DNA of 64,000 bases from a virus (IMGVR_UViG_3300032247_000689:1-64000); one strand, 5' to 3'. Numbered from the stretch's first letter, positions 9,538-54,413 are shown. Made by a program: numbers and translations. The notes: a model not told the origin generated them from the letters alone.

Positions 9538-9810
9538 ATGTCTAACGTACTTATAGTTGCCTTTGCTGCCTCTTTTATCTTGGCGCTTCTTGAACCTATT
9601 ACAAGTTTTATATCTATATTCATCACCCCTAAGGCGGTAAACGCTTTCTTCTCCGTAAGTTTAAGCTATCTAGGCTTATATCTTATAGGTGGCGGGTCTG
9701 TAAAGCATTTGATTATTGAATCCTTAGCGGCTTCATTCCTTGCCCGCACCGCTTTAACTATTGCAGAACGCGCTTCAACATACCGCTGGGCTTCAATTAA
9801 ACAATCGTAA
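9538..9810 (+). CDS. Small membrane protein (leaderless)
   Basis: About three hydrophobic segments; TACTAT 6 nt before ATG. Confidence 0.6.
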   Translation: MSNVLIVAFAASFILALLEPITSFISIFITPKAVNAFFSVSLSYLGLYLIGGGSVKHLIIESLAASFLARTALTIAERASTYRWASIKQS

Positions 9811-38983: not shown

Positions 38984-39101
38984 TTAGTATTAAACGCAGG
39001 TACGGCTATCTCTCTCTTCCTAAAACCAATAAAAGAAAGTGAAAGGTCTTGACCGCCCTTAGCATGGAAAGGGTGTGCTTTAACGCCCAATACTATAGGG
39101 A

Positions 39102-39257
39102 TTAAATCTCTTCTTCGTCGTCCTCTTCTTCATCATCACAGAGGCAATCATCTCCACACTCTCCGCAATCGAAGCATTGGTCATCTTCCCACTCTTCAAG
39201 GTCATCTTCATCTTCAAGTTCAATCTCTTCAATATCAGGGGTTACTTCATCAGCCAC
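39102..39257 (-). CDS. Very acidic small protein with Cys cluster
   Basis: GTG start; D/E-rich; CFDCGECGDDCLC. Confidence 0.55.
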   Translation of the reverse strand: MADEVTPDIEEIELEDEDDLEEWEDDQCFDCGECGDDCLCDDEEEDDEEEI

Positions 39258-39261
39258 TCTC

Positions 39262-39549
39262 TTATGCCTCTCTCTTGAAGGATACTGTACCTGACCAAGA
39301 CATAGGCTTGCCTTTAACATCAAGGTCTGCGCCAGCAATCATCTTGCAACTCTTTCTAGTTGTCATGGCTTGGACTCTCTCTTTAACCCAACGCTTGCCA
39401 GCACTAGCGTTAGACCACGCTGTTTTTTCTACAACATAGCCTTCGTCAATTCCTTCATCTCTTACGCTAACGCTTGCTAACCATGCGCCACCCTTTTCAG
39501 GGTTCTTTTTTAGTGTTGCCTCGAATATAGCAGTTACTTTTCTAGCCAT
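39262..39549 (-). CDS. Hypothetical protein
   Basis: SD AAGGAG. Confidence 0.65.
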   Translation of the reverse strand: MARKVTAIFEATLKKNPEKGGAWLASVSVRDEGIDEGYVVEKTAWSNASAGKRWVKERVQAMTTRKSCKMIAGADLDVKGKPMSWSGTVSFKREA

Positions 39550-39961
39550 TGTTATTCTCCTTTGTGACCCAATAGTACGGCATATCAGGCAATACGTTTG
39601 GGAACTTGTCTGAGTAGTATTCAGGGTTCTTTCTTATTAAGTTGCTTTGGTGAGATAGGTGAAGCCGTCTCTCTCCTAACCATGACGGTAGGATTACTCT
39701 ACCATCATAGTTAAATCTCTCTAGCATATTATCCGTGTAGCCACGCGCGCTCCACTCTATGCACATCTCTCTCCCATACTCTTTAAGCGCGCTCTCATAG
39801 CCCGCCCACATGAGTACGGCAGGGTGGTTACGCCAGCCCTTTGTCTCTCCACGCAGGGCTCTTAATACTTGCCACGCTTCGACTCTCTGTTTACCTAGTC
39901 TCTTATAGTCCAGCACTTGCGCCGTCTCTCTGAAACTAGGATAGGGAAGGAAGGTCTGCAC
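39542..39961 (-). CDS. Pyrimidine-dimer DNA glycosylase-like protein (MSMEG_6728 family)
   Basis: MQTFLPY...LD.KRLGKQRVE...HPAV.MW...SHQSNL.RK. Confidence 0.85.
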   Translation of the reverse strand: MQTFLPYPSFRETAQVLDYKRLGKQRVEAWQVLRALRGETKGWRNHPAVLMWAGYESALKEYGREMCIEWSARGYTDNMLERFNYDGRVILPSWLGERRLHLSHQSNLIRKNPEYYSDKFPNVLPDMPYYWVTKENNNG

Positions 39962-40116
39962 GTTACGCCTCTAGGTATTGCACTATGACCCCAAGCGTTG
40001 TGTGTATAGCGCAATCACAATCGCTCTCTTTATGGTCGTTGAAAGAATTAAAGTGTTCTAAATTATCCTCATAGATTACGTCAATAAGTTCGTTTATTGT
40101 ATATAAATCACTCATC

Positions 40117-40557
40117 TTATCTCTCTCTCATACTGTTGAAGGCAATATCAACTGCGATATTAAACTTTATATCCATTTCCTCTGTCCACTCGATAGAGTT
40201 CATCTCTCCCCAGTTGATAAGGTTATGCTCATCTATGAAGTTATGAATCTCCAGCGCGGTATCCTCATTAACGGATAACATCTTACCTATCCACATGGTA
40301 AAGATATTCGTTTGGTGCGGTTTGCGTGTAGGCACTTCATAATCGTTGCAGATAGCGTCCACTAGGGCTACCCCTGCTATGTCTCTCTTGCTCCCCACAT
40401 AGGTAAGGCGCAATCCTGAATCGGATAGGGCTTGAAGTACAGTTATATATTCTATATCTACATTTATATCTTTGTTAAGTTTGATTAGTTCTTCTAGCCT
40501 TATACCTAGTACGCAAGCGTAATCCTTCTGCGCAGTAACCTTATCGTTGTCGTTCAT
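40117..40557 (-). CDS. Hypothetical protein
   Basis: SD AAGGAG. Confidence 0.6.
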   Translation of the reverse strand: MNDNDKVTAQKDYACVLGIRLEELIKLNKDINVDIEYITVLQALSDSGLRLTYVGSKRDIAGVALVDAICNDYEVPTRKPHQTNIFTMWIGKMLSVNEDTALEIHNFIDEHNLINWGEMNSIEWTEEMDIKFNIAVDIAFNSMRER

Positions 40558-40599
40558 ACTTCTCCTTCGATATTGGTCGAGTTACACTCGGCGCACTCA

Positions 40600-40725
40600 T
40601 TACATCTCATCTTTCTTATGCTTCCGTTTCCTAGTGTATCGCTTCTTATTCTTTATGGGGGTAGCGGAATTACTACGGCGTAACTCTAATAAACGGCGTA
40701 GTTCCTCTGCTGACTTCTTAAACAT
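40600..40725 (-). CDS. Small basic peptide (41 aa, missing from ORF track)
   Basis: MFKKSAEELRRLLELRRSNSATPIKNKKRYTRKRKHKKDEM; SD AAGGAAAG; TTGACT-N17-CACACT upstream. Confidence 0.6.
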   Translation of the reverse strand: MFKKSAEELRRLLELRRSNSATPIKNKKRYTRKRKHKKDEM

Positions 40726-41173
40726 CTTTCCTTATCCTTTGTTAGATAACCCTAGCGCGTACTACGTCCTTAGTGTGTCGAACGGTACGTTGCAAGTCAA
40801 TTCGCGTAATCGCGCTAGGGTTATTCTGTAACTCAATAGGTACTGCGCTTTCGTGTCTATCATTTACTCGATACTATGCTGGCGAAACTATACTGCTGGT
40901 TACGGCTATCATAGTTTTCACCGTAATCCGTCGCGTTGTTATGGAGTAAGACCCTGTTTCATAGGCTAGACCAATCCTATTAAGTAACTTTGCACCCCGT
41001 TAGGTACTGCGACACCATAGTTCACTCGAATCTATTACATAAACTCATTGGAACACTTTTGCTAATTGCCTATTGCCTTATTAAAGATAGCCCATGCCTA
41101 TCTCATTGGGGCTCACGTTCGCCATGTGGGGCTCTTGACCAATCCTAACGGGGAATCCTCTATGTAGTTTTAT

Positions 41174-41788
41174 TTACCAACTCGCTTGGTAGTGGTAATC
41201 GTACTCTCCCTCAATATCACTCGCAAGTATTGAGTTAATCGTCTCTGCTGTCTCTGCAAGTTCACGATAGTAATACTCGTCCTTATCGGTACTACCGAAA
41301 AAGAATCCTGATACGGGTGGGATAGGGTCATCGCCTTCATCAAGGATAACCCTACTCGAACGCGCTGTCTCTTTGGCAAACGCTTCCATAATAGATTTGA
41401 CCGTACTGTTCTCTGAACCCGAATCTATTGTATAAACTTCTGAATCTTGAGTAGGTACTGCCTTATGCCTATCCTGTAAGCCTACGACACACGCGTTACG
41501 CAACGCGATAAGGTCGTCTCTGCTCATTGAGATACGCTGGCACTCATCTACGCCGTTGGCGCAGTTGCGAACTATCCAACCGTGAATAGCGTTAGCCTTA
41601 CGCCAATACGCTACGCACTTAGTAACTCTAACGCTACCGTATTCTGCGGTCGGTATCGAGTTTAGACCCGACGCTTCGATAACATTATCGTATTCAAGAT
41701 TATCTTTGCGAGTCATTTCGCCATTAACGCTCTCGAAGTCATACGCGCTTATGTGCTTCTCTGCATATAGGTACATATCTAATCCCAT
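41174..41788 (-). CDS. Conserved phage hypothetical protein
   Basis: MGLDMY...YWRKANAIHGW...GFFFGS...YQASW. Confidence 0.75.
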   Translation of the reverse strand: MGLDMYLYAEKHISAYDFESVNGEMTRKDNLEYDNVIEASGLNSIPTAEYGSVRVTKCVAYWRKANAIHGWIVRNCANGVDECQRISMSRDDLIALRNACVVGLQDRHKAVPTQDSEVYTIDSGSENSTVKSIMEAFAKETARSSRVILDEGDDPIPPVSGFFFGSTDKDEYYYRELAETAETINSILASDIEGEYDYHYQASW

Positions 41789-41915
41789 TTGTGTTTTCCT
41801 TTATTGTCTAATTGTTCGACGTCGCACCATACGAAGCCGTCCTGATGTCTAGTTATCTGTCCTAATATGTCGAACCATTGTTCGTCCACTTCGGCAGTAA
41901 TTCTGAACGTGTCGG

Positions 41916-42110
41916 TCATAGGATTACCCTTCTGTTGTCCTCTAGGTAGAACATATAATCGAGCGCGGTCGTTATTAAATTGTTTAAGTTCGGTATATCT
42001 AACGCGGTATCCGCGCTATTTATTCCGTCCTGTAATCGAAGTAATACGTCCTTCATAAGTTTCGCGTAATCTACGGGAGACTCGTCGAAGGTAATCGTAT
42101 CCTTGTCCAT
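41916..42110 (-). CDS. Hypothetical protein
   Basis: SD AAGGAG. Confidence 0.55.
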   Translation of the reverse strand: MDKDTITFDESPVDYAKLMKDVLLRLQDGINSADTALDIPNLNNLITTALDYMFYLEDNRRVIL

Positions 42111-42222
42111 TAGAACTCCTTACTGTTGTAGGTATATCCGCTAACCTTATTTGAGTTATGGATAATAGCAAGCGTTACGGCTACCGTGTATAGGGCTAGT
42201 ACGCCTAGCCCTATCGCGGTAA

Positions 42223-44091
42223 TCATGCGACCCTGTTTGTGTTGAGCGTGGATTTGACTAGGCTCTGCGCCACTTCAAGAACGTCCTTTGGCTCGGCAAC
42301 CGCGTGAAAGATACTCGCGCCATGATTTATACGCTTGATAGTGCTTCGCGCAGACTCGCCATAATCATCTCCGAGACGGCTCTGCTCTAATAATTCTTGG
42401 TAATACTTATATCCACCTAAGAATACTACGCAAGTGATGAAGCCCTTATCGTTTAAGGATTTAATAATCGCGTTGCAATCATCGTCCATATCCCACTCGC
42501 CGTCGGTAACTATGAAGGCTAACTTTATCGAACGCTTGCTCATAGTGAGAATACGCTCTGCTTCAATTAAGCCACGAATAGGATTAGTGCTACCCGAAGC
42601 GTGGAGATAACGATAGGTACTAGGCTTAGCCTTGTCCTTCTTGTCATAGATAAGGCTACTCTCATGGTTGAAAGATATAGTAGTCACGTTGCCGTTGATA
42701 CCTTCGATACCGCGCTTGATAATCCACGCGTTCTCCATGACCGAGCGCATGAGCCCACCCATACTGCTACTGTGGTCGGTTAAGATTACCGCTTCAATAT
42801 CTGTATTAGGGTTACCCGTATCCCATTGGTCGAACATGGTACGGATAGAGTTCACGTTAGGGCTCATGGTACGGGTGATATTTAACTTACCGCGCGCGTT
42901 AAACTTATCCCACTTAGGGTCGCCGTTGCGAACGATACGCTCTAATTCTTGACCGAAGCGACGGGCAATCGAGCGCGCTGACTCTGATACGCTCATCTCT
43001 GAACATGATACCTGCTTAACCGCACCGCGTACTTCGTCGCTATTAAGGATAGCCTTACGCGTTTCATTGACTTCGCGCTTGATAGTTTCGTTTTCCTTGA
43101 TAGCCTTCATGCGGTTATTGAGTAACTTAGAGATAGCCTTATCTTTATCGTCGAACTCTACGTCCGCGCCTTCGTAAGTGCCGTCTCCACCCACGCCGAC
43201 ATTAGGATTATTACCGATAGTTTCGATAGGGTTATCCTTGTTCATGCGAGCGTTGCGTTCTTGTAAGCGTTCTTGCTCTGCGTTCTTTGCAGGACGACCC
43301 TTTACAGGGAACTCGCAACCGCCATGTGGGGGTAGGTGAATCTCACCCTGTTGCTCATCTAAGCCGACAATCTCTGCCATGCGAGCGATAAGCACCTTAG
43401 CCTTATCGAAGTCGGCAGGGAATACCAATACGCGATAGGCGTGGATAAGTGTGTGTAGTTCTTGCGCTAAGGCTACGCCATGAGTAGCGATAAACTCATC
43501 TGCAACCGCTTGGCGTACTTCGATAGGTAGATAGGTGCGACCCGTAATAATATGGAAGTAATTGCCAATCGTATCTTGATTATCGAGTAGGTACTGCGTG
43601 GTCGCGCTCTCTAGGAATAGTCGAGTCACGGGATATTTAGCCACTAGTAACGCTTCCGCGCGCGCTTCCTCTAGGATATAGGTTGCGCGACGGTACTTAT
43701 TATCCTTGACATATTGGATAAGGTTACTTCCTGCGCGTGGCGAGAATAGAACGTGAGCGACTTCGTGGTAGTTGAGCCCGTGAAGGTGCATGATATTATC
43801 TTGAGATACATCTGCAATAAGGTTATCGTTAAATATAATCTCGCGACCGTTGCTCATAGCATTAGTTTCCATAGACGGGTCATTAACTACCGATACGGTT
43901 AGTTCAGAGTCGCCCGTGATAATTCTATCGGCGCGCTGATATACCGCGCTGATAGCGTTAAGGCGGTTAGCCCTATCCTGATAGTCGGCGAGAATATTCT
44001 CTCTAGTGCGACCGAACTCGTCGGTCGCACCCCACCGTAAGTCTCCGCTTTCTAGGGCAGAGAGTTCATCGTTGTATCTAGCCCTAGCCAC
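42223..44091 (-). CDS. vWA-domain protein with N-terminal HExxH motif (CobT-like)
   Basis: YHEVAH; MIDAS DHSSSM, GSTNP, VTDGE. Confidence 0.82.
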   Translation of the reverse strand: MARARYNDELSALESGDLRWGATDEFGRTRENILADYQDRANRLNAISAVYQRADRIITGDSELTVSVVNDPSMETNAMSNGREIIFNDNLIADVSQDNIMHLHGLNYHEVAHVLFSPRAGSNLIQYVKDNKYRRATYILEEARAEALLVAKYPVTRLFLESATTQYLLDNQDTIGNYFHIITGRTYLPIEVRQAVADEFIATHGVALAQELHTLIHAYRVLVFPADFDKAKVLIARMAEIVGLDEQQGEIHLPPHGGCEFPVKGRPAKNAEQERLQERNARMNKDNPIETIGNNPNVGVGGDGTYEGADVEFDDKDKAISKLLNNRMKAIKENETIKREVNETRKAILNSDEVRGAVKQVSCSEMSVSESARSIARRFGQELERIVRNGDPKWDKFNARGKLNITRTMSPNVNSIRTMFDQWDTGNPNTDIEAVILTDHSSSMGGLMRSVMENAWIIKRGIEGINGNVTTISFNHESSLIYDKKDKAKPSTYRYLHASGSTNPIRGLIEAERILTMSKRSIKLAFIVTDGEWDMDDDCNAIIKSLNDKGFITCVVFLGGYKYYQELLEQSRLGDDYGESARSTIKRINHGASIFHAVAEPKDVLEVAQSLVKSTLNTNRVA

Positions 44092-44968
44092 GAAGCACCT
44101 CATTGAAGTAGTTCATATCTGCTTGGCGGTATCCCATAGACTCTAGGATATTGTCCTTATGTGTATCACACGCTAGGCGTACCCCACCGCGCTCCTCACG
44201 GTTGAAGCCATTAACGAAGGACATAATTGCGAAGTCCACGTCGAAGTTGCGAGCGTTATTTATGAAGGCAACGAGCGAACGGGTTGAGATAGGGGTAGAT
44301 AACTCCTCTTTAGCGTATTGCTCGCGAAGTTGGTCGGCTAGGATTAGAAGTGCTTTATTACCGACTACCTTGTTCTCGATAGCCCTATCGTAAGGGAACT
44401 CCAACTTAATATGGAAGCGGTCATTGAAGGCTTGGTTGAGTTCTTGTGTGCCTTTATAGCCATAGTTCATATCGGCTACGATTAGTAAGTCCTTATGCGC
44501 CTTGATTACTTCGCCACCGTTCTCCAATAGTTGAATCTCACGGCGGTAATCGAGAAGTGAGAATAGGACGGTAGAGACACGGGTAGGGAGAAAGTTCACC
44601 TCATTGAGAAGTAATACGCCACCATGTCGGACGATTTGGGTAACTGCACCGTCCTGCCAACGATAACCCTGTCCGTCTGCGCGTGGAATCCATGCGCCGA
44701 ATAGTTGAGAAGGGTCGATAGCATTAGAGTTCGATACATTGAAGTAACGCATACCCTTAGCCGAAGCATAACTCTGAACGGCGATAGTCTTACCGCTACC
44801 TGCTTCACCTTCGATAAGGATATTAGTGCCGTCGGCAAGCGCGCGGTCAAAGATTTCCCACTCGGTTTTACGTCCGAAGTGGCGGTTGATATACCCGTGA
44901 GATAGAGATATATCGGGTACTGTAATCATGGAGTAGGTCATATCCTGCTCATTGGTCGTTGTATTCAT
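44084..44968 (-). CDS. MoxR/CobS-like AAA+ ATPase
   Basis: GEAGSGKT, LLNEVN, N.GY.G...LNQAFNDRF; SD GGAAGG supports ATG at 44968. Confidence 0.88.
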   Translation of the reverse strand: MNTTTNEQDMTYSMITVPDISLSHGYINRHFGRKTEWEIFDRALADGTNILIEGEAGSGKTIAVQSYASAKGMRYFNVSNSNAIDPSQLFGAWIPRADGQGYRWQDGAVTQIVRHGGVLLLNEVNFLPTRVSTVLFSLLDYRREIQLLENGGEVIKAHKDLLIVADMNYGYKGTQELNQAFNDRFHIKLEFPYDRAIENKVVGNKALLILADQLREQYAKEELSTPISTRSLVAFINNARNFDVDFAIMSFVNGFNREERGGVRLACDTHKDNILESMGYRQADMNYFNEVLRG

Positions 44969-45020
44969 TGTGCCTTCCTGTGCGCCATTGGCGCGGTTAT
45001 GGGTTTGCCTTACATAGAGA

Positions 45021-45049
45021 AAGATAGGGGAAGGGATAGGTATAGGCAA
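45021..45049 (-). promoter_or_regulatory. SigA-type promoter for AAA/vWA operon
   Basis: TTGCCT-N17-TATCTT on minus strand. Confidence 0.6.
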
Positions 45050-45311
45050 CTTCCTACTACGCGTGGAGTATAACGATTTGATAACGATTTCCTGCTCTCT
45101 CTGCCTCTCTTATCCGATAACTCTCCCCAACCGATAGCCCTAGACGTGGCTGTATCGCCATGCTCTCTCCACTACCATAGGTAGTAGCCGAAAGTCAATA
45201 GCGGAAAGGTGTGTTCTCTCTCACTCTCTAAGGTTAGCGGGCTCTCTCGCCTCTCTCGCGCAAAATTGTTATGAAATCGTTATAAATCTCTCGGCGTGTC
45301 GATTTGACAGA

Positions 45312-45427
45312 GTTTGTGTTGGTTAATAGCTAGCTATTAACCAATTAACAATAAGCCTAAGCTTATTGTTAACGGGGTTTAAGGGGTGTCCCCTGATAGG
45401 GTTATGGGTGGGTGGGTCAACACAAAC
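45312..45427. repeat. Branched palindrome element A (divergent copy)
   Basis: GTTTGTGTTG...CAACACAAAC enclosing a 26-bp perfect palindrome (45319-45344) and a 12-bp hairpin (45345-45372). Confidence 0.7.
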
Positions 45428-45440
45428 ATTTCGCGCCCAA

Positions 45441-45456
45441 TGTTTCACGTGAAACG
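45441..45456. promoter_or_regulatory. parS-like site
   Basis: TGTTTCACGTGAAACG: 15/16 match to TGTTTCACGTGAAACA, perfect 14-bp core, intergenic. Confidence 0.75.
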
Positions 45457-45545
45457 GTGATAGCCCTAGCGCGCTAGGCACTAGGGCTATCGTTACCCTG
45501 TTTCCGAAAGGTTAGAAACTCAACAGGGCGCTAGGGGTAGACGAC

Positions 45546-46115
45546 CTACTCCCCCTTATCCCCGCGAATTACTCCGCGAAGGACATCTAATATGTTAGAG
45601 GGGAAATCGGTTGGTACTGCCCCTGATTCAGTAAGGAGTTCAAGTGGGTCGTATTCACCTGAAAGTATCTTGTATGGGTCTAACTTAGAGAACTTATCCA
45701 CCTTGCAGTTACTACGAAGGAAGGCTGTCGCTAGGTCAGGTGCTTCCATCTCGAATTGGGAGATAAACCTACCCAATACGCCCATAGTAGAGAATAACTC
45801 CGCCGCATGACCGCAAGCCCATAGGATATTGCAAGCGATAGCGAGGGCGTACATATCGTCCTCGTTAGGCTTATCGTTCTGTATTACATTGGTAATCGCA
45901 GAGTTGGCTAGGGTTACGCTCATTTTTTGACGGAACTCGAAGTCACCCTTGAGTGTTTGGCAAATAATTGCCGAATAGAGTTCAGGTTCGTGAAGGTCAC
46001 GGGTAAGGTTAGGGAACAACGGGTCAATGTTGTCCCCTTCCTCAATATCCTGCGCGTCAGGCAAGAGGTTAATAGTGGCGATAATCTCGTTAAAACGATA
46101 CTTGAGGTCGCTCAT
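45546..46115 (-). CDS. Hypothetical protein
   Basis: Coupled ORF. Confidence 0.65.
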   Translation of the reverse strand: MSDLKYRFNEIIATINLLPDAQDIEEGDNIDPLFPNLTRDLHEPELYSAIICQTLKGDFEFRQKMSVTLANSAITNVIQNDKPNEDDMYALAIACNILWACGHAAELFSTMGVLGRFISQFEMEAPDLATAFLRSNCKVDKFSKLDPYKILSGEYDPLELLTESGAVPTDFPSNILDVLRGVIRGDKGE

Positions 46116-46603
46116 TGCTCGCTCACATCTGTATCGAAGTCAGAGTCATCTAACTCCCAAGAGTCGATGTCAATATCGTAACTACCTGACTCGCCCTTGT
46201 AGGAGATTGTCACGCTAATACTAGCCTCGATGTCAGCGTCCTCTAGGACTATTTCACCTGCGCGTTCCTCGTTCTCGGCTTCTACGTCCTCGAACTCGGC
46301 AACTGTGTACCCCTTGTAATTAACGGCAACTGTGAACTTGCGCATTAGGGTTTCAATGTTATCCCAACCTAAGCGGTCAGCGATAGTGTTATAGGTCTCG
46401 ATGGCTTCATCGTTGGTAAGTGTGCCGTTGTCGGCTAGGTCGCGGAGTGCGCCAAGAACGCCCTCTGCGTGTGTGGCGTTAAGGTTGTCCTTAGCGCGCT
46501 GGATACGAAGGTCTACATCTGCGTAGGCTTCGTTTACTGCCTTAGTTGTCTGTGCTACCACATCATCTGCGGTAAAGAACAACTGTGTCTGTTCGTATGA
46601 CAT
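46112..46603 (-). CDS. Acidic hypothetical protein
   Basis: SD AGGAAG; own promoter. Confidence 0.7.
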   Translation of the reverse strand: MSYEQTQLFFTADDVVAQTTKAVNEAYADVDLRIQRAKDNLNATHAEGVLGALRDLADNGTLTNDEAIETYNTIADRLGWDNIETLMRKFTVAVNYKGYTVAEFEDVEAENEERAGEIVLEDADIEASISVTISYKGESGSYDIDIDSWELDDSDFDTDVSEQ

Positions 46604-46647
46604 TTGTACTGCTTCCTGTGGGTGGTCGTTATCCCACTACCTGATTT

Positions 46648-46736
46648 AACCATACTCTCCCCCTCTCTATTCCAACTCTTTTATAACGATTTGATAACGA
46701 AAAGATAACATTTCGTTATTCTCAGCCAACTCTCAG
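46648..46736 (-). promoter_or_regulatory. Cassette promoter: GGAAT-N18-GTT, ATAAC array, TCTCAG-N5-TCTCAG
   Basis: Promoter 46648-46673; ATAAC at 46683/46694/46705, GTTAT 46715; TCTCAG 46720/46731. Confidence 0.75.
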
Positions 46737-46746
46737 GAATCTCCCA

Positions 46747-46833
46747 TGTTTGTGTTGGTTTATTAGCAAAATATGACGTGTCATATTTTGCAGACATAGC
46801 TGCTATGTCTGCGCTAATAAACCAACACAAACA
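46747..46833. repeat. T-shaped three-way-junction palindrome B
   Basis: 21-bp stem plus 10-bp and 11-bp arms, all Watson-Crick. Confidence 0.95.
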
Positions 46834-46834
46834 A

Positions 46835-46864
46835 TAAGCCTAGCGGGGGAAGCCGCTAGGCTTA
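46835..46864 (-). terminator. Intrinsic terminator
   Basis: TAAGCCTAGCGG-N6-CCGCTAGGCTTA; T-rich tail on minus strand. Confidence 0.75.
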
Positions 46865-46872
46865 CTGCTGAC

Positions 46873-47250
46873 TTATGAAAAGGATACGAACCCTGGCGCG
46901 TTGGTATTCCATATTTGGCTATCGTATTTGAGGAAGTAATCTACTTGCTCATCGGATAATCCTAGTGTGTAGCCCTCATCATCTGCGCCACCTGTGATAA
47001 TGACATCGCCCATGATTACATCTGACATATCGTACATATCAACCCATAGCGCGGTTGCGGTTGGGTTTTGAGTTAGCCCGCTAAACTTTCCGTTCTCGTT
47101 GAGCCACATATCAGGTTGGCTAGGCTTATCGTGTAGAGAGACACACTCAATCATGCCACCTACGGCTTCAGATAGAACTTCGTAACAGGTATCGTTGGTG
47201 AACTCAACCACAGACTTCTCACCTGTGGTCGTAATCTTAATTGCTTTCAT
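46873..47250 (-). CDS. DUF3846-like protein
   Basis: VGGMIECV...MWLNENGK....N..AT...GDVIITGG.D.EG. Confidence 0.75.
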   Translation of the reverse strand: MKAIKITTTGEKSVVEFTNDTCYEVLSEAVGGMIECVSLHDKPSQPDMWLNENGKFSGLTQNPTATALWVDMYDMSDVIMGDVIITGGADDEGYTLGLSDEQVDYFLKYDSQIWNTNAPGFVSFS

Positions 47251-47398
47251 CGGGTTTCCTTTCGGTCGGGGTGTGGGGTGGATAGCCCTAGACTTGGCTC
47301 TAGGGCTATCCTGCAACCTGCTGACCCGTAGCGGTTGCGAGATAGGCAATTACGGCTTGTACTGGCTCGGATAGCCTATCCCAAACTTAATGCGGGTC

Positions 47399-47704
47399 TT
47401 ACTTCTTTACTCCAAGAGTTTTGCGGAGATTCTTAATGCGCTCATAGAGAGTGCCTTCGGATACTCCTAGTGATTCAGCCATAAGGCTAATAGGTAGCCC
47501 TGCCTTGTGTGCTTGCCATGTAATGGCGTCGCGGTTGATGATGGCTTCCTTAAGAGCCACATCTGCTTCAACTAGGCTTTGGCAGAACTGTGCTTTCTGC
47601 TCTAGGCTTAGTTTTGACTTGCGGTACTTGCGCGTAGGTGCTTTACCTGTCGCGCGCGCTGTACGGATACGCTCCTTCAGCGCGTCTATGTCCTTGTGTG
47701 ACAT
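47399..47704 (-). CDS. HTH DNA-binding protein
   Basis: GLPISLMAESLGVSEGTLYERI. Confidence 0.75.
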   Translation of the reverse strand: MSHKDIDALKERIRTARATGKAPTRKYRKSKLSLEQKAQFCQSLVEADVALKEAIINRDAITWQAHKAGLPISLMAESLGVSEGTLYERIKNLRKTLGVKK

Positions 47705-47745
47705 ATATTCTCTTTCCGTGAGGGGTCGTTCTCACTATCTAATAG

Positions 47746-47817
47746 AACCACACCTCTGCGGATTCTCTTTCACTTTTTTGATAACGATTCGGTAACAATC
47801 TCATAACGAAATGTTAT
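47746..47817 (-). promoter_or_regulatory. Cassette promoter (variant GAAAG-N18-GTT) with ATAAC array
   Basis: ATAAC 47781, GTAAC 47792, ATAAC 47803, GTTAT 47813. Confidence 0.65.
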
Positions 47818-47820
47818 AAA

Positions 47821-47911
47821 TGTTTGTGTTGGGGTTTATATGCAAAAAATAACGTGTTATTTTTTGCAGACATGGCTTCCATGTCTGCGCATATAAACCC
47901 CAACACAAACA
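47821..47911. repeat. T-shaped three-way-junction palindrome C
   Basis: 23-bp stem plus two 10-bp arms, all Watson-Crick. Confidence 0.95.
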
Positions 47912-47914
47912 AGA

Positions 47915-47940
47915 CAGCCCCAGCCTTTCGGCTGGGGCTG
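47915..47940 (-). terminator. Intrinsic terminator
   Basis: CAGCCCCAGCC-TTTC-GGCTGGGGCTG (GAAA loop on minus strand). Confidence 0.8.
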
Positions 47941-47955
47941 CTTTATAACGTTTCG

Positions 47956-48903
47956 TTATAGTGCCATTACGGCTTCTAGAACCCGCGCCTTTTCTTGCTG
48001 GATTCCAGTCTCGAATCCACTAGCGGCAACTGCCATGCCCTCTGTCATAGGGTTATCGCCATTGCGGTACCAGTCGATTCTTTCGGTGAGCGCGTTAAGC
48101 GCGCCCCACTTAGTGCCAGTAATATTGGCGTTAGTTGGAGATGAGACATAGAGCCCACGAGTGAGGTCGAATTTTGCTTCCCACTTAGTAAGTTGAGCCT
48201 TCTTATCGTCCTCGGGCTTTGGATAGATAGTCTCGAATACCTTGTCGAATTGCGCGGTTGTGATTGGTGTCTGGTAAAGACCCTGTGCGATTGCATCGAA
48301 TTCATCTAAGTAAGCATGTGTGAGCGCAAGAGCCTCGCGCGCTTCTGTGATTCTGCCCTGTGTGCCTTGAGTGTGGCGAACAGACCATGATTGCTTAGCG
48401 CGCTTGAAGGCTAGGCTTAGCGTATTTTGGCAGATAACGCGAACAGGCGTTACACATGCGCGGATTGAACTAGAGCCGTCATGTGATGATGAAACTAAGA
48501 GATATGTCTTAGTTGTGTCATTTGCGCCAGTTGGGTCGATTGTAAACTCGCGGTCGATTGTGAGCGCACCGAAGATTGTGCGACCCTTGCGGAAGAAACC
48601 TGCGGATTCCCATTGGGCTCCGCCGTCAAGAAGATTGTCGCCGAAAGCGAGTAAATCCTCATTTTGGTATACATCGTATTTTTCGCCTACGATTGCGAGA
48701 GATTCCACGCCGTTAGGGGTATCGCGTAGCACCATATATTCATTAGAGAGAGGCTTGACGCCAGTTGGGTAATTTACAGGCTCCTTGCGGACATTCCAGT
48801 TGGCAAGACCTGCGCGGTTGAGCATTTCGCTCGTTGTGACATGCTCATTAGGGCGGAAAATCTCCCGCGCTAATGTGTGCCACGTTGGTGTGCGTAGTGA
48901 CAT
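47956..48903 (-). CDS. DUF932 / TIGR03299-like phage-plasmid protein
   Basis: WH.L, AGL.W.V, YLL..SHDGS...TPVRVICQNTL, RHT, GT.WGALNA. Confidence 0.85.
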   Translation of the reverse strand: MSLRTPTWHTLAREIFRPNEHVTTSEMLNRAGLANWNVRKEPVNYPTGVKPLSNEYMVLRDTPNGVESLAIVGEKYDVYQNEDLLAFGDNLLDGGAQWESAGFFRKGRTIFGALTIDREFTIDPTGANDTTKTYLLVSSSHDGSSSIRACVTPVRVICQNTLSLAFKRAKQSWSVRHTQGTQGRITEAREALALTHAYLDEFDAIAQGLYQTPITTAQFDKVFETIYPKPEDDKKAQLTKWEAKFDLTRGLYVSSPTNANITGTKWGALNALTERIDWYRNGDNPMTEGMAVAASGFETGIQQEKARVLEAVMAL

Positions 48904-48949
48904 TTTTAACCTTTCGATATTGCTAGCCCTATGGCTAGGCACCCAATAT

Positions 48950-49060
48950 AACCTAATACGCGGTAGTGCTATTCCACTCTCACATAACGATTAGATAACG
49001 ATTCCATAACATTTCGTTATACAGGTATCTCTCAGGAAACTCTCAGGATTCTCCTCTCAG
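48950..49060 (-). promoter_or_regulatory. Cassette promoter: GGAAT-N18-GTT, ATAAC array, TCTCAG boxes
   Basis: Promoter 48950-48975; ATAAC 48984/48995/49006, GTTAT 49016; TCTCAG 49030/49041/49055. Confidence 0.75.
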
Positions 49061-49067
49061 CTGAAAA

Positions 49068-49158
49068 TGTTTGTGTTGGGCTGTATATGAAAAATATGCA
49101 TGGCATATTTTTGCAAAGACCGCTTCGCGACTTTGCCATATACAGCCCAACACAAACA
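49068..49158. repeat. T-shaped three-way-junction palindrome D
   Basis: 22-bp stem, 10-bp arm, second arm with one small internal mismatch. Confidence 0.92.
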
Positions 49159-49160
49159 AG

Positions 49161-49192
49161 TTATCCACAGGCGGGGAAGTGCCTGTGGATAA
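49161..49192. promoter_or_regulatory. Inverted pair of DnaA boxes within a hairpin
   Basis: TTATCCACA (49161) and TGTGGATAA (49184). Confidence 0.6.
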
Positions 49193-49236
49193 GTTAGCCG
49201 CCGCGAAAAAGGTTAGGGAAAACGCGGCGGCTAAGG

Positions 49237-49404
49237 CTAGGTTGTGCTATTCCAGCACTCGTCACAAGTAAAGCCATCTGGATATGCGTCTGGAAGTATT
49301 GGCGTTAGTACAGACCCATCAGGGAGCTTCTTTGCGCACTTCATACAGATTAGTGAGCCTTCCGCGTCCTCAACGCCGATAAGCCTAGTGAACGGAGTAA
49401 TCAC
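49237..49404 (-). CDS. Small zinc-finger protein (55 aa)
   Basis: CMKC...CDEC; coupled to upstream gene. Confidence 0.55.
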   Translation of the reverse strand: MITPFTRLIGVEDAEGSLICMKCAKKLPDGSVLTPILPDAYPDGFTCDECWNSTT

Positions 49405-49589
49405 GCTGGCACCCATGTAGTCCAGCGCGTTTCAAGGTTATCCTGCAAGAGGCGTAACCTTACGCTACCTGTGCGATTGCGTACCTTCTCGACTACAAAG
49501 CCTACTTCTTTAGATTGCTCGGTTTCGTATAGGTCGCCAATCTCGGGCTCGAAATTGAGTGGCAAGATGTGGTCGGTGAGTATTGCCAT
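49401..49589 (-). CDS. Hypothetical protein
   Basis: SD GAAAGGA. Confidence 0.6.
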   Translation of the reverse strand: MAILTDHILPLNFEPEIGDLYETEQSKEVGFVVEKVRNRTGSVRLRLLQDNLETRWTTWVPA

Positions 49590-49742
49590 TTATTTATTCC
49601 TTTCGTAATGGAAGTCACAGATTGTGGCGTCCGCGTCTATTGAGTAGTGACAATTAGTTTTTACTGTGTGGTGAGTGTAATGAAAGTGGGCGAGCCCTGC
49701 AAGGGTGGCTATTGCCACCCCTGCAAGAATTACGCGCTTCAT
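49590..49742 (-). CDS. Small exported/membrane peptide (50 aa)
   Basis: MKRVILAGVAIATLAGLA...; coupled. Confidence 0.55.
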   Translation of the reverse strand: MKRVILAGVAIATLAGLAHFHYTHHTVKTNCHYSIDADATICDFHYERNK

Positions 49743-49897
49743 GGTTTCAATCCAAATTGCTCAACGACAGTCTTAGTACATTCCTCAATTCCCGAAATCT
49801 TGCCTTCTGTGTAGGCAATCTCGATAATGTGCGCCACTAGATTAGTGGTAGTGGTATCTAGGCTCGCTTCTGCGAGTAGGGCTAGGGCTTGCTTCAT
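49739..49897 (-). CDS. Small hypothetical protein (52 aa), first gene of leftward region
   Basis: SD GAAAGG downstream of cassette promoter. Confidence 0.6.
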   Translation of the reverse strand: MKQALALLAEASLDTTTTNLVAHIIEIAYTEGKISGIEECTKTVVEQFGLKP

Positions 49898-49943
49898 GTT
49901 CGTAACCTTTCGTTATGAAGGCGTTGTTGCCTTCAACTACTAT

Positions 49944-50062
49944 AACCGAGAGCGCGCTAGTGCTATTCCCACTATATATAACGAAATGATAACGATTAGA
50001 TAACAATATGTTATACAGCCTGCTCTCAGGTACCCCCCAGGGTTAACTCAGACAATTCTCAG
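49944..50062 (-). promoter_or_regulatory. Cassette promoter: GGAAT-N18-GTT, ATAAC array, four TCTCAG-like repeats
   Basis: Promoter 49944-49969; ATAAC 49978/49989/50000, GTTAT 50010; TCTCAG/CCCCAG/ACTCAG/TCTCAG at 50024/50035/50046/50057. Confidence 0.75.
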
Positions 50063-50123
50063 GAACGGGGCCAGGAAACATCCGCACCTATTACATAGTT
50101 CTATAGGCAGTAGCCCTTTTTGC

Positions 50124-50152
50124 TTGACATGGTGAGGCAGTAGCGCTATGGT
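50124..50152 (+). promoter_or_regulatory. SigA promoter (leaderless)
   Basis: TTGACA-N17-TATGGT-N6-ATG. Confidence 0.75.
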
Positions 50153-53597: not shown

Positions 53598-54127
53598 TTA
53601 AAAGAGTTACTGTTGGTCTATTTATTGCCCTTTTAACATCCACTACTGCTTTTGCACATGTTGATACAAAAGTTAGCATTAAACCTAACTCTATCTACAC
53701 TCCTGGAGCGCTAAACCCTGCAGTTACTCAAGCTAATATTAAAGATAACATTTGCAAGGCTAACTGGACCACAACAGTTCGTCCACCCGTTTCATATACA
53801 AATAAACTTAAAGCCGCTCAACTAGCTGGTAACTACCAGTTCTTTATCGCTATCTATGGCGCTGACCCTAAGAGCTACGAAGAAGACCACCTCATCTCGC
53901 TACAACTTGGGGGTTCTCCCACAGACCCTAAGAATTTATGGCCTGAACCATATTCTGGAGATAACGCGCATAAGAAGGATGTAGTTGAAACTGCCCTTAA
54001 GCGTTTAATTTGCTCTGGCAAAATCACACTTGCAGATGCTCAAAAAGCTATTGCCACCGATTGGATTGCTGCGTACAACAAGTATGTAAACGCTGCAGAC
54101 CTTAAAGCAGTTGACTCAAATGGCTGA
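53594..54127 (+). CDS. Secreted HNH-like protein
   Basis: Signal peptide; TPGA.NP.VTQ; YEEDHLISLQLGG...NLWPE. Confidence 0.7.
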   Translation: MIKRVTVGLFIALLTSTTAFAHVDTKVSIKPNSIYTPGALNPAVTQANIKDNICKANWTTTVRPPVSYTNKLKAAQLAGNYQFFIAIYGADPKSYEEDHLISLQLGGSPTDPKNLWPEPYSGDNAHKKDVVETALKRLICSGKITLADAQKAIATDWIAAYNKYVNAADLKAVDSNG

Positions 54128-54413
54128 GACTAAAAAGTTTGGTCCCTACAAAGGTTCCGAAGCAAATGGAGGTCGCCCTATCTACGTCTACAAGAAAAAA
54201 GTAGGCGGTAAGTGGGTTACTACTTCTAAAAACAAAGCTCGCGCTGATTACGAGTCTAAGAACGGCAAGATTAAATCTAAAGACGTTACTGTCGACCATA
54301 AAGACAATAATCACAATAACGACTCTAAAGGTAACCTTCGGGCTATCTCTCGCAGTAAAAACACAGCTAAAGAAAACAAGCGCCGTGCAGGTAAAAAGGA
54401 GAATGAGAAATGA
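54120..54413 (+). CDS. HNH endonuclease-like protein
   Basis: VDHKDNNHNNDSKGNL..SRSKN. Confidence 0.75.
   Translation: MAETKKFGPYKGSEANGGRPIYVYKKKVGGKWVTTSKNKARADYESKNGKIKSKDVTVDHKDNNHNNDSKGNLRAISRSKNTAKENKRRAGKKENEK

Follow-up and report, generated by a model that had tools for sequence, protein, structure and literature searches.

A repeated terminator–hairpin–operator–promoter spacer and its probable role in insulated early transcription units of an uncultured phage

Introduction

Why would a phage place the same composite spacer in front of a series of unrelated genes? The question is raised by a 64,000-nucleotide stretch (IMGVR_UViG_3300032247_000689:1-64000; here called the window) of a 95.8-kb IMG/VR record of an uncultured phage. 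An earlier note on the window proposed that a modular cassette with fixed element order is repeated four to five times at 45-50 kb. Our best explanation is that this block would be the leftward early region of a myovirus-like phage of ~96 kb, arranged as five tandem insulated units.

Results

Four spacers with a common element order

Strand reading and alignment show that, between 45.0 and 50.07 kb on the minus strand, four spacers lie upstream of the ATGs at 49897, 48903, 47704 and 46603. They share one order, in which an intrinsic terminator is followed by a T-element, CTGAGA boxes, an ATAAC/GTTAT array, GGAATA-N17-GTT, a 5' hairpin, an SD and the gene. A fifth, longer variant precedes an AAA ATPase. 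The proposed cassette plan is borne out. The motifs occur far above chance, and the plan recurs throughout a family of related phages, in which different genes stand between the spacers. When the whole 95.8-kb genome was scanned, paired T-element arms, ATAAC arrays and GGAAT-N18-GTT were seen within the 45-50 kb block or next to it and nowhere else; single T-arm words and CTGAGA words also occur outside it. The spacers and genes are as follows.

49898..50075, minus strand: spacer A, without a T-element; contains an SD
49237..49897, minus strand: cargo A, small ORFs, four in number, of 52, 50, 62 and 59 aa, none assigned to a Pfam or PHROG family
48904..49067, minus strand: spacer B; contains an SD
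47956..48903, minus strand: cargo B, DUF932 protein of 315 aa, kept throughout the phage family
47705..47820, minus strand: spacer C, without CTGAGA boxes
47399..47704, minus strand: cargo C1, HTH101, a basic protein of 101 aa
47251..47398, minus strand: conserved structured intergenic motif, with a AGCCGTAATTGCC core in a covarying stem, then a 12-bp hairpin
46873..47250, minus strand: cargo C2, DUF3846 protein (125 aa, pI 4.05)
46604..46746, minus strand: spacer D
45546..46603, minus strand: cargo D, acidic 163-aa (pI 4.05) and 189-aa (pI 4.4) proteins
42223..44968, minus strand: cargo E, AAA_5 (CobS-like) ATPase and its 626-aa partner, conserved across the family

As had been claimed, the cargo genes are unrelated, their products belonging to different families: DUF932 and DUF3846 proteins, one small HTH protein, acidic proteins with a pI of 4.0-4.4, and four peptides that are 50-62 aa long. 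The small ORFs of cargo A are almost unique to this phage, and the cargo D proteins evolve fast across relatives. The anatomy also fits the idea of self-contained expression units, each having its own promoter-like site, 5' hairpin, SD and terminator. The structured motif at 47251..47398 is not one of the cassette spacers.

Spacer A does lack a T-element, and the strand switch placed near 50.06 kb is real.

50124..50152, plus strand: sigma70-like promoter TTGACA-17-TATGGT, driving the rightward genes and marking the divergent point

The further suggestion of a genome end or terminal-repeat boundary at this point found no support; the 123-bp end repeat of the record lies elsewhere and looks like an assembly overlap. 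A simpler explanation for the missing T-element is that no co-directional upstream unit needs terminating. The divergent sigma70-like promoter, together with the absence of GGCC and the 9-fold depletion of AGCT in the 45-50 kb block only, suggests that the block is an early region.

Putative operator boxes, promoter-like sites and 5' hairpins

Downstream of the T-element position, each spacer carries the following elements.

50057-50062 and 50024-50029, minus strand: CTGAGA boxes, spacer A
49978-50014, minus strand: ATAAC palindrome and GTTAT array, spacer A
49944-49969, minus strand: GGAATA-N17-GTT, spacer A
about 49916-49935, minus strand: 5' hairpin, spacer A
49030-49060, minus strand: three CTGAGA boxes, spacer B
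48984-49020, minus strand: ATAAC/GTTAT array, spacer B
48950-48975, minus strand: GGAATA-N17-GTT, spacer B
about 48923-48938, minus strand: 5' hairpin, spacer B
47781-47817, minus strand: ATAAC/GTTAT array, spacer C
47743-47767, minus strand: weaker GAGAAT ... GGTTCTA promoter-like site, spacer C
about 47718-47735, minus strand: 5' hairpin, spacer C
46720-46736, minus strand: two CTGAGA boxes, spacer D
46683-46719, minus strand: ATAAC/GTTAT array, spacer D
46648-46673, minus strand: GGAATA-N17-GTT, spacer D
about 46618-46637, minus strand: 5' hairpin, spacer D

The array unit is an ATAAC-N5-GTTAT palindrome plus two GTTAT repeats in exact 11-bp steps. Three YGTTAY boxes at 11-bp steps were matched four times in the window, against 0.00 in shuffles, and all matches lie in the four spacers, in agreement with the note's ATAAC array in each cassette. 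CTGAGA (TCTCAG) boxes, at 11- or 33-bp steps, were found in spacers A, B and D only, the expected three cassettes. From the identical operator arrays in all four spacers, co-regulation of the units is a reasonable inference. A candidate binder of the ATAAC palindromes, judged from sequence, is HTH101, whose fold combines a long helix with an HTH of LuxR/GerE or sigma-region-4 type. HTH orthologues co-occur with ATAAC-N5/6-GTTAT palindromes in the relatives L073-L077; counting against this assignment, ATAACGATT boxes are kept in relatives without HTH101, such as L037.

The proposed GGAAT-N18-GTT promoter holds for spacers A, B and D but not for C, which has GAGAAT and another spacing. Likewise, the gap between the last GTTAT and GGAAT is 8, 8 and 9 nt in A, B and D, as claimed, but 13 nt in C. 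GGAATA-N17-GTT was matched four times, against 0.42 expected, the fourth site lying at 42001-42026. These four sites have an ECF-type -35 GGAAT and -10 GTT 17-19 nt apart, from which spacer C deviates. A sigma70 scan gave no match at the four spacer promoter positions, and no sigma factor gene was found in this phage. The relative G001 has ten GGAA[TC]-N18-GTT sites, and its first cassette gene encodes an ECF sigma factor. Every one of the four spacers has a short 5' hairpin (5-7 bp), as noted earlier, but taken singly these are weak (z -0.8 to -3.2).

T-elements follow the terminators

The terminators and T-elements between the units are listed in transcription order.

49161..49232, minus strand: two terminator hairpins ending unit A
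49068..49158, minus strand: T-element B, 91 nt, Y-shaped
47914..47941, minus strand: intrinsic terminator hairpin of unit B, its U-tract forming the T-element arm
47821..47911, minus strand: T-element C, 91 nt
46830..46869, minus strand: intrinsic terminator hairpin of unit C
46747..46833, minus strand: T-element D, 87 nt

The T-element is here a Y-shaped palindrome of 87-91 nt with invariant ends, TGTTTGTGTTG/CAACACAAACA; copies B, C and D each have outer arms of 21-27 bp and two inner hairpins. Folded as RNA, either strand reaches -50 to -57 kcal/mol (z -9 to -12), and the T-arm 11-mer at up to one mismatch gives 11 matches against 1.48 expected. The T-tails of the terminators at 49161-49192, 47914-47941 and 46830-46869 are the start of the T-element. 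We see the same across the family, where the T-element always lies directly 3' of a GC hairpin and short T-run and the terminator U-tract is its left arm.

A pattern scan found 27 loci, and the non-redundant set comprises 63 T-elements in ~25 related viral contigs. Lengths range from 67 to 111 nt, with invariant terminal inverted repeats of 11-12 bp and a variable centre, and the median length of the uninterrupted outer stem is 21 bp (mostly 19-25 bp). The conserved arms covary, with five double compensatory changes, three wobble changes and one mismatch, and in the closest clade both sides have changed at nine outer-stem pairs. Counted over 29 oriented type-1 elements, the sense strand has 63 G.U pairs and the antisense strand 18; the bias is towards sense in 19 elements and towards antisense in two. 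In many family members, only the sense strand gives a good fold. Between genes, a double-stranded RNA stem of ~20 bp or longer is predicted. As the T-element lies downstream of a terminator, it would be transcribed by read-through only. Its folding, we infer, takes place in the sense strand and most probably in RNA made by read-through. No match at the gathering score was found in Rfam, which returned only sub-threshold look-alikes of miRNA hairpins (29 bits against 95). A separate observation is that an RNA role alone does not account for the 11-12 invariant, specific bases.

The region before the AAA ATPase has its own layout.

45442..45455: parS-type 14-bp palindrome GTTTCACGTGAAAC, just upstream of the type-2 element
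45311..45428, minus strand: type-2 T-element, comprising T-arm, CCCACCCACCC tract, two hairpins and closing arm
44969..45310, minus strand: GAGAG-rich long leader of the AAA/vWA operon
45263-45284 (inverted orientation) and 45069-45090: ATAAC pairs in this leader

The copy that the note had called degenerate does exist, but the label does not fit: a T-arm followed by CCCACCCACCC marks a second, conserved type of element, which many relatives have at this position. It is cleanly absent (114 bp) from one of two 99.9% identical genomes, so that copy is dispensable.

Turnover among relatives

The box type that follows the T-element varies by lineage. In most relatives perfect DnaA boxes, including the TTGTCCACA variant, stand there in a single orientation, 2-23 nt after nearly every T-element, with 6-10 per genome. 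Matches to the DnaA 9-mer TT[A/G]TCCACA were found in G002, G003, G005, L011, L022 and L032, and in G003 the boxes form a 20-bp palindrome. This phage has only two such 9-mers, both in the B terminator, whose hairpin (49161-49192, the second of unit A) is made of two inverted perfect DnaA boxes, TTATCCACA. The CTGAGA and GATAAC/GATAACGATT boxes were rejected as DnaA boxes, matching at only about 5/9 positions of the 9-mer.

The idea that cassettes are exchanged by recombination at the spacers is only partly supported by sequence comparison. Cargo genes and whole spacers do come and go. Among the 30-odd related loci of the first comparison, none has a counterpart of the four small ORFs, HTH or DUF3846; the latter two turned up afterwards, only in a few short metagenome contigs that are closely related. 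L022 and L032 differ by a one-cassette indel with both junctions in the terminator/T-element zone, homology resuming at the next box. The junction between the DUF3846 and acid genes holds a full 269-nt spacer in this phage, the same cassette within a longer spacer in L073, a 90-nt spacer lacking terminator and T-element in L074, and 20 nt in L076/L077. Regulatory units are also gained or missing between the conserved acid and p189 genes. Against exchange, the backbone order DUF932 - acid - p189 - AAA - vWA is conserved, L073 carries extra small ORFs inside a unit, upstream of the terminator, and no significant trace of cassette exchange is visible in the gene trees. AAA and DUF932 yield congruent topologies; the acid tree is discordant, yet congruence is not rejected by it (AU p 0.17).

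Discussion

We propose, with a probability of roughly 0.6, that the block comprises insulated, co-regulated early transcription units built on a portable terminator–hairpin–operator–promoter spacer. The intrinsic terminator would close the upstream unit, its U-tract running into the T-element, so that any read-through RNA would form a hairpin acting as a second barrier or a processing site; the double-stranded stem of ~21-25 bp could be a substrate of, for example, host RNase III. Together, terminator and T-element would make each unit answer to its own promoter only. Boxes on the same face of the helix at 11-bp steps would act as the common operator, with the HTH protein of unit C as candidate binder. 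The GGAATA-N17-GTT site, of ECF (SigH/SigR) type, would probably be read by a host ECF sigma factor, and the 5'-terminal hairpin would probably stabilise the mRNA.

The SigH-specific promoters of Corynebacterium glutamicum are GGAATA-N17-GTT, and among the SigH/SigR-type (ECF) promoters of Actinobacteria the SigH-specific ones of trxB1 and mshC match the sites here letter for letter (PMC10012870). Unlike in those systems, the phage has no cognate sigma, and most relatives are without the motif, including the closer L035-L038 and part of L074/L075. As the -10 regions of the relatives resemble ordinary TAnnnT hexamers, the ECF assignment could be wrong. The sites may instead be housekeeping-sigma early promoters plus an activator site, their conserved part being a TAnnnT -10 (TATAGT, TATATT, TTAAAT); GGAATA would then be the promoter-proximal box of the phased array, bound by an activator that replaces the -35 contact. 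Such an arrangement is possible but doubtful. Close relatives do retain TAGAAT-, TTAAAT- or TTAGAT-like -10 sequences, often without GGAAT-N18-GTT, the CTGAGAAT boxes of G001 grade into GGGAATA in 11-bp register, and the phage itself has no sigma gene; however, the negative sigma70 scan speaks against it, GTT is invariant in all nine promoters of this phage and G001 at a fixed N17 from GGGAATA/TGGAATA, and the G001 sigma gene lies behind a GGAAT-type promoter, the usual autoregulatory layout.

Two further readings give the DNA itself the leading part, and we consider both improbable. T-elements might be selfish or recombination-active DNA, MITE-like or attC-like, that spreads beside terminators, perhaps as an integron-like cassette system without a known integrase, the cassette appearance being largely a by-product of insertion and of crossovers between copies. 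The invariant terminal repeats around a variable centre (67-111 nt), the position at the 3' end of each gene group, the 114-bp presence/absence difference and the L022/L032 indel bounded by T-elements are in keeping with this, and the strand-biased fold is reminiscent of attC, which folds strand-specifically. But no target-site duplication accompanies the clean indel, no copies were found in 185,579 reference prokaryote genomes except chance flagellin 5' ends, and diverged relatives (this phage against L008, L073 and L074) share orthologous positions with related interiors, which indicates vertical descent. It is equally hard to favour a role of the spacers as DNA-level landing pads for chromosome proteins of the host. 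In that case DnaA, ParB or a further factor would be recruited or titrated by the T-arms, DnaA boxes and parS, whether or not a cruciform extrudes, and the effect would be on the timing of early transcription, the onset of replication, or the positioning or condensation of the incoming genome. The DnaA boxes behind nearly every T-element in most relatives, those in the B terminator, the parS beside the type-2 element here and in G005 and L074, and an 11-bp phasing equal to a 9-mer plus 2 would all suit it; yet the boxes of this phage fit the 9-mer poorly, the G003 palindrome fits a dimeric HTH repressor equally well, and an origin is not expected to be repeated before each gene. Arm covariation and sense-only folding also argue against a symmetric duplex site or cruciform.

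The concept closest to the proposed insulated units on a portable spacer is that of the mobile regulatory cassettes known as PeSL (promoter-early stem-loop) in T4-type phages (Arbiol et al. 2010, PMC2839356; Comeau et al. 2014, PMC4122927), which follow the same logic. In both, small terminator-plus-promoter composites are repeated between non-essential early ORFans of a plastic region, a layout by which each gene can be expressed and insulated independently; conservation of the copies extends over about 100 bp, and cargo varies between relatives. The composite here is intergenic, ends in SD and start codon, and has many copies clustered in a plastic, ORFan-rich region. PeSL indels and replacements between close relatives have junctions that fall in the motifs; here this holds for the L022/L032 indel and for spacer gain or loss in L073-L077, yet the L073 insertion lies inside a unit and the trees are compatible with vertical descent. 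In contrast to PeSLs, the promoter is GGAATA-N17-GTT behind phased operator boxes rather than sigma70-like with an AT-rich upstream region, the stem-loop is double (a terminator plus a branched hairpin of 87-91 nt with invariant ends), the element sequences are unrelated and the phage is not T4-like. Excised mini-circles, formed when neighbouring motifs recombine, are a PeSL trait; the evidence here comes from sequence, and the gene trees do not demand exchange.

Phage T7 has RNase III processing hairpins with internal loops between early genes, inside one long transcript. Both phages have long, mutually similar intergenic hairpins in the early region, and the predicted uninterrupted stems of about two helical turns fit the size of an RNase III substrate. 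The hairpin here differs in standing behind an intrinsic terminator, in the perfect conservation of its base sequence and in its frequent branching; cleavage is a prediction.

In integrons, cassettes are promoterless and expressed from a common platform promoter, and the attC consensus has an inverse core RYYYAAC at the 5' end and a core GTTRRRY at the 3' end. T-elements share with attC a variable-length imperfect palindrome with conserved ends and variable centre on the 3' side of each cassette, a strand-biased single-strand fold, and unrelated cargo. They differ in core order, which is the opposite (GTTGGGC ... GCCCAAC), and in that each unit has its own promoter-like site and vertically inherited position; the tyrosine recombinase IntI (PF00589) is absent from the 95.8-kb genome at E <= 1.

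A bolder and rather unlikely extension is that the terminator-coupled T-elements represent a previously undescribed class of phage cis-element, in which a sense-strand hairpin has a sequence-specific base that a dedicated phage or host protein recognises. They would be both RNA insulation or processing sites and crossover points of an integrase-free, integron-like system that swaps self-expressed anti-defence cassettes within this family of uncultured phages of ~96 kb, with host DnaA, ParB and ECF-sigma signals wired in. On our preferred reading of insulated units, the spacer would be a portable module over evolution, its grammar kept while box types, promoter type and cargo turn over.

Organisation of the spacers

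The plus strand of this phage carries nearly all of its genes, the exception being a minus-strand block from ~39.0 to 50.07 kb. Within that block, the control regions before the ATGs at 49897, 48903, 47704 and 46603 (spacers A to D) share one fixed order of elements, and both a reading of the minus strand and an alignment uphold the earlier note on this point. A spacer opens with a GC-rich hairpin whose T-tail forms the first bases of the T-element, a palindrome of 87-91 nt made of outer arms of 21-27 bp and two inner hairpins, which folds at -50 to -57 kcal/mol (z -9 to -12) in either strand. CTGAGA boxes were confirmed in three spacers, as was the lack of a T-element in the first, which is most simply explained by there being no co-directional unit ahead of it. 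In 4/4 spacers there follows an ATAAC-N5-GTTAT palindrome with two further GTTAT boxes at exact 11-bp steps (four matches, where 100 shuffles gave none), then a gap of 8-9 nt (13 nt in spacer C) before GGAATA-N17-GTT, which has 4 matches against 0.42 expected and from which spacer C departs. A hairpin of 5-7 bp, an SD sequence and the ATG complete the spacer. A whole-genome scan found paired T-element arms, ATAAC arrays and promoter-like matches only within the block, and lone T-arm and CTGAGA words also outside it.

The cargo is mutually unrelated, as had been proposed: DUF932, a 101-aa HTH protein, DUF3846, two acidic proteins and four peptides of 50-62 aa. What had been described as a degenerate copy before the AAA_5 ATPase gene proved instead to be a distinct type-2 element, which occupies the same place in relatives.

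T-elements in the window
49068-49158, minus strand: T-element of spacer B
47821-47911, minus strand: T-element of spacer C
46747-46833, minus strand: T-element of spacer D
45311-45428: type-2 element, in which a T-arm leads into a CCCACCCACCC tract and then two hairpins

Just upstream of the first box in the T-less first spacer is the motif AACCCTGGGGGG(T), common to this phage (G000) and the related genomes G001 and G003.

Sites of the AACCCTGGGGGG(T) motif
Window 50030-50050
L049 (locus of G001), about 5485-5500
G003 region, about 9660-9690

The T-element across the phage family

A two-arm pattern scan of IMG/VR gave 27 loci spread over about 25 contigs, of which many are ~95 kb long, and with arm variants allowed there are 63 non-redundant copies with the consensus T-TGTTTGTGTTGGG...CCCAACACAAACAtt. 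Immediately ahead of every type-1 copy stand a terminator hairpin and then 2-5 T-rich bases. The elements span 67-101 nt in all, most have an uninterrupted outer stem of 19-25 bp, and their interior is highly variable yet self-complementary. Changes within the otherwise invariant arms comprise five double compensatory, three wobble and one mismatch, and both partners of nine outer-stem pairs have changed within the closest clade.

The T-element could in principle be a symmetric duplex site or a cruciform, or a fold adopted by one strand. In 29 type-1 elements, oriented by their neighbouring ORFs, G.U pairs number 63 in the sense strand vs 18 in the antisense; taken per element, the preference is for sense in 19 and for antisense in two. 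In some T-elements the sense-strand fold is better by 7-13 kcal/mol. Such an asymmetry in G.U pairing speaks for folding of a single strand, with RNA as the simplest case, over the symmetric alternatives. An Rfam search gave no match above threshold, and a literature search for the arm sequence returned unrelated primers only.

One type-2 copy is cleanly gone from locus L013 (114 bp, no target duplication); G002 and L029, the latter 99.9% identical to L013, both have it. The phages can therefore do without this copy, which is either unstable or mobile.

A pattern scan of reference prokaryote genomes gave four matches, none resembling the phage family: three are chance matches at flagellin gene starts (MALTINTN) and one is an unrelated MAG contig. 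Lone T-arm 10-mers in relatives were likewise rejected as elements, being mostly within coding regions (Thr-Gln-Thr codons). In L056-L058 (Gastranaerophilales and an uncultured-bacterium MAG) the flagellin genes begin ...ATCAACACAAACA, and TGTTTGTGTTG, exactly complementary to it, occurs in their 5' leaders some 75-77 nt upstream, a pairing that is possibly a translational hairpin unrelated to the phage element.

Promoters, boxes and candidate regulators

Enrichment of GGAA[TC]-N18-GTT was found only in this phage (4 sites) and G001 (10 sites). The motif of this phage has the same form, GGAATA-N17-GTT, as the SigH-specific promoters of C. glutamicum (PMC10012870). G001 encodes an ECF sigma factor of 164 aa (L049:5618-6112; Sigma70_r2 1.5e-15, r4_2 5.6e-8), whose gene opens the first cassette and is preceded by a GGGAATA-N17-GTT promoter. 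An ECF sigma gene is absent from all other relatives fetched; searches for a sigma factor in this phage with Pfam region 2 and region 4_2, tblastn and phmmer were all negative, as were Pfam scans of the rightward early ORFs. Because no sigma factor is detectable here and close relatives often keep just a TAnnnT-like -10 hexamer, the reading of GGAATA-N17-GTT as an ECF promoter is plausible, not secure. A further exact GGAATA-N17-GTT lies at window 42001-42026 (minus), downstream of the vWA gene (partner of the AAA ATPase gene) and in or beside a 64-aa ORF, without a T-element or an ATAAC array; it is a possible promoter for the leftward genes that come next.

Proteins resembling the G001 sigma factor in the protein atlas point loosely toward Bacteroidota ECF sigmas. 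On our reasoning, strong SD sequences and a sigma70-type promoter speak against a Bacteroidota host.

50124-50152: sigma70-like promoter, a good match, driving the rightward genes

The 101-aa basic protein is the only regulator encoded in the cassettes of this phage. Its AlphaFold model (mean pLDDT 82.5) comprises a long helix and a C-terminal three-helix unit, which can be overlaid on domains of the LuxR/GerE/NarL and ECF sigma-4 types (1.2-1.7 Å across some 44 residues; weak Foldseek E-values of 0.1-0.4); the G001 counterpart, at 27% identity, matches Sigma70_r4. Four metagenomic homologues (58-90% identity) come from short contigs with the conserved order DUF932 - HTH - DUF3846 - acid (the acidic 163-aa protein) - p189 (a 189-aa protein), whose spacers contain ATAAC-N5/6-GTTAT palindromes. 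The HTH-like fold and this co-occurrence make the protein a candidate binder of the ATAAC/GTTAT arrays; against this, locus L037 has ATAACGATT boxes without its gene.

The interval separating the HTH gene from the DUF3846 gene contains a conserved structured motif, in which an invariant CTAnCCG-AGCC...AGCCGTAATTGCC core inside a stem is followed by a 12-bp hairpin. Six stem pairs are changed on both sides (seven sequences), and Rfam gave no match.

Copies of the HTH-DUF3846 intergenic motif
Window 47251-47398, minus strand
Close-relative metagenome contigs: L073:309-457, L074:1584-1722, L076:529-700
L049 (G001): 8478-8600 and 9655-9760
Related locus L035: 8941

Most relatives have CCTGTGGATAAC as their first box past the T-element, and this sequence includes a perfect DnaA box. 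DnaA boxes number 6-10 per relative genome, in a single orientation and 2-23 nt downstream of the T-element; TTGTCCACA variants also occur. CTGAGAG arrays replace them in this phage, G001, L008 and L031. This phage has just two DnaA boxes, perfect and inverted (TTATCCACA / TGTGGATAA). It also has a parS-type site, whose pairing with a type-2 T-element recurs in G005 and L074.

49161-49192: terminator hairpin of unit A, preceding the T-element of spacer B and built from the two inverted DnaA boxes
45442-45455: perfect parS-type palindrome GTTTCACGTGAAAC, 13 nt upstream of the type-2 T-element

The proposed cassette exchange and genome end

The earlier note had suggested that cassettes are exchanged by recombination between spacers. 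The backbone order DUF932 - acid - p189 - AAA - vWA is conserved, the AAA and DUF932 trees agree, and the acid tree differs without congruence being rejected (AU p 0.17), so that the gene-tree test for exchange was not significant. Turnover of cargo and spacers points the other way. No counterpart of the four small ORFs, the HTH or DUF3846 occurs in the first set of 30-odd related loci, and the last two recur only on the short contigs L073-L077; cargo families f30 and f10 shift position relative to DUF932 and vWA. Locus L032 has one unit more than L022 (T-element, box, promoter, f10, terminator), with both junctions in the terminator/T-element zone and homology restarting at the DnaA box. At the DUF3846-to-acid junction this phage and L073 have a full spacer; L074 has one of 90 nt bearing only a promoter, and L076/L077 have 20 nt. 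Regulatory units in the acid-p189 interval are present in some relatives and absent in others. Against exchange at the spacers, additional small ORFs of L073 lie within a unit. Given such turnover amid a conserved backbone, the spacers behave as portable modules where change is tolerated; recombination between them is only partly supported, with the junctions and turnover for it and the backbone order, the trees and the L073 insertion against.

A genome end or terminal repeat near 50.06 kb, also raised previously, found no support. The IMG/VR record (95,815 bp, rated 100% complete, the window covering 1-64000) has a 123-bp direct repeat at its ends, elsewhere, which looks like assembly overlap. 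The linear IMG/VR contigs G002 and G004 both end within the acid/p189 part of the early block, which could reflect microdiversity breaking the assembly, or real ends. An apparent 1.5-kb deletion in G002, with its breakpoint in the acid gene, proved to be an artefact of joining the ends of this linear contig and was set aside. GATC and CCGG do not occur in the entire 95.8-kb genome. In the minus-strand block (38985-50065) GGCC stands at 0 vs 1.53 per kb elsewhere and AGCT at 0.54 vs 4.64; this depletion is limited to the block, where TCGA and CGCG are enriched. It is compatible with early host exposure and locates no terminus.

The genome encodes baseplate wedge proteins, a DnaB-like helicase, PolA, ribonucleotide reductase and a queuine-tRNA-ribosyltransferase-like protein. 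DNA searches of INPHARED phages, near and distant, gave no DNA-level match to the region, and PolA has only 40% identity, to Streptomyces phages. A tRNA scan of the window found none. Among the rightward early genes is a small HNH_3 endonuclease ORF (window 54111-54413, plus; 100 aa, E 1.7e-6).

Relation to known systems and significance

The closest concept to these spacers is the PeSL cassette of T4-type phages, a composite promoter/terminator motif that insulates ORFans and mediates shuffling (PMC2839356, PMC4122927), although the promoter type differs. The resemblance to attC sites and integrons fails, as this phage has no integrase (a tyrosine recombinase gene is absent), core-site order differs in the T-elements, and the cassettes here have their own promoters. 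Likeness to T7 RNase III sites is limited to stem size; an RNase III gene is absent from the phage.

Here a phage that does not belong to the T4 group offers a clean natural example of modular, insulated expression units in its early region. The T-element is the least explained and most original part of the finding: present in 63 copies whose ends are invariant, whose arms covary and whose fold favours one strand, it is a well-defined candidate new structured RNA or single-strand DNA signal. DUF932, DUF3846 and very acidic proteins are the kind of cargo found in anti-defence islands, and the spacers therefore mark likely locations of new counter-defence genes. With perfect DnaA boxes ahead of almost all early genes in most relatives, a parS site, and ECF-type promoters that are joined in one relative by a cargo ECF sigma, the family may read the replication or stress state of the host at the start of infection.
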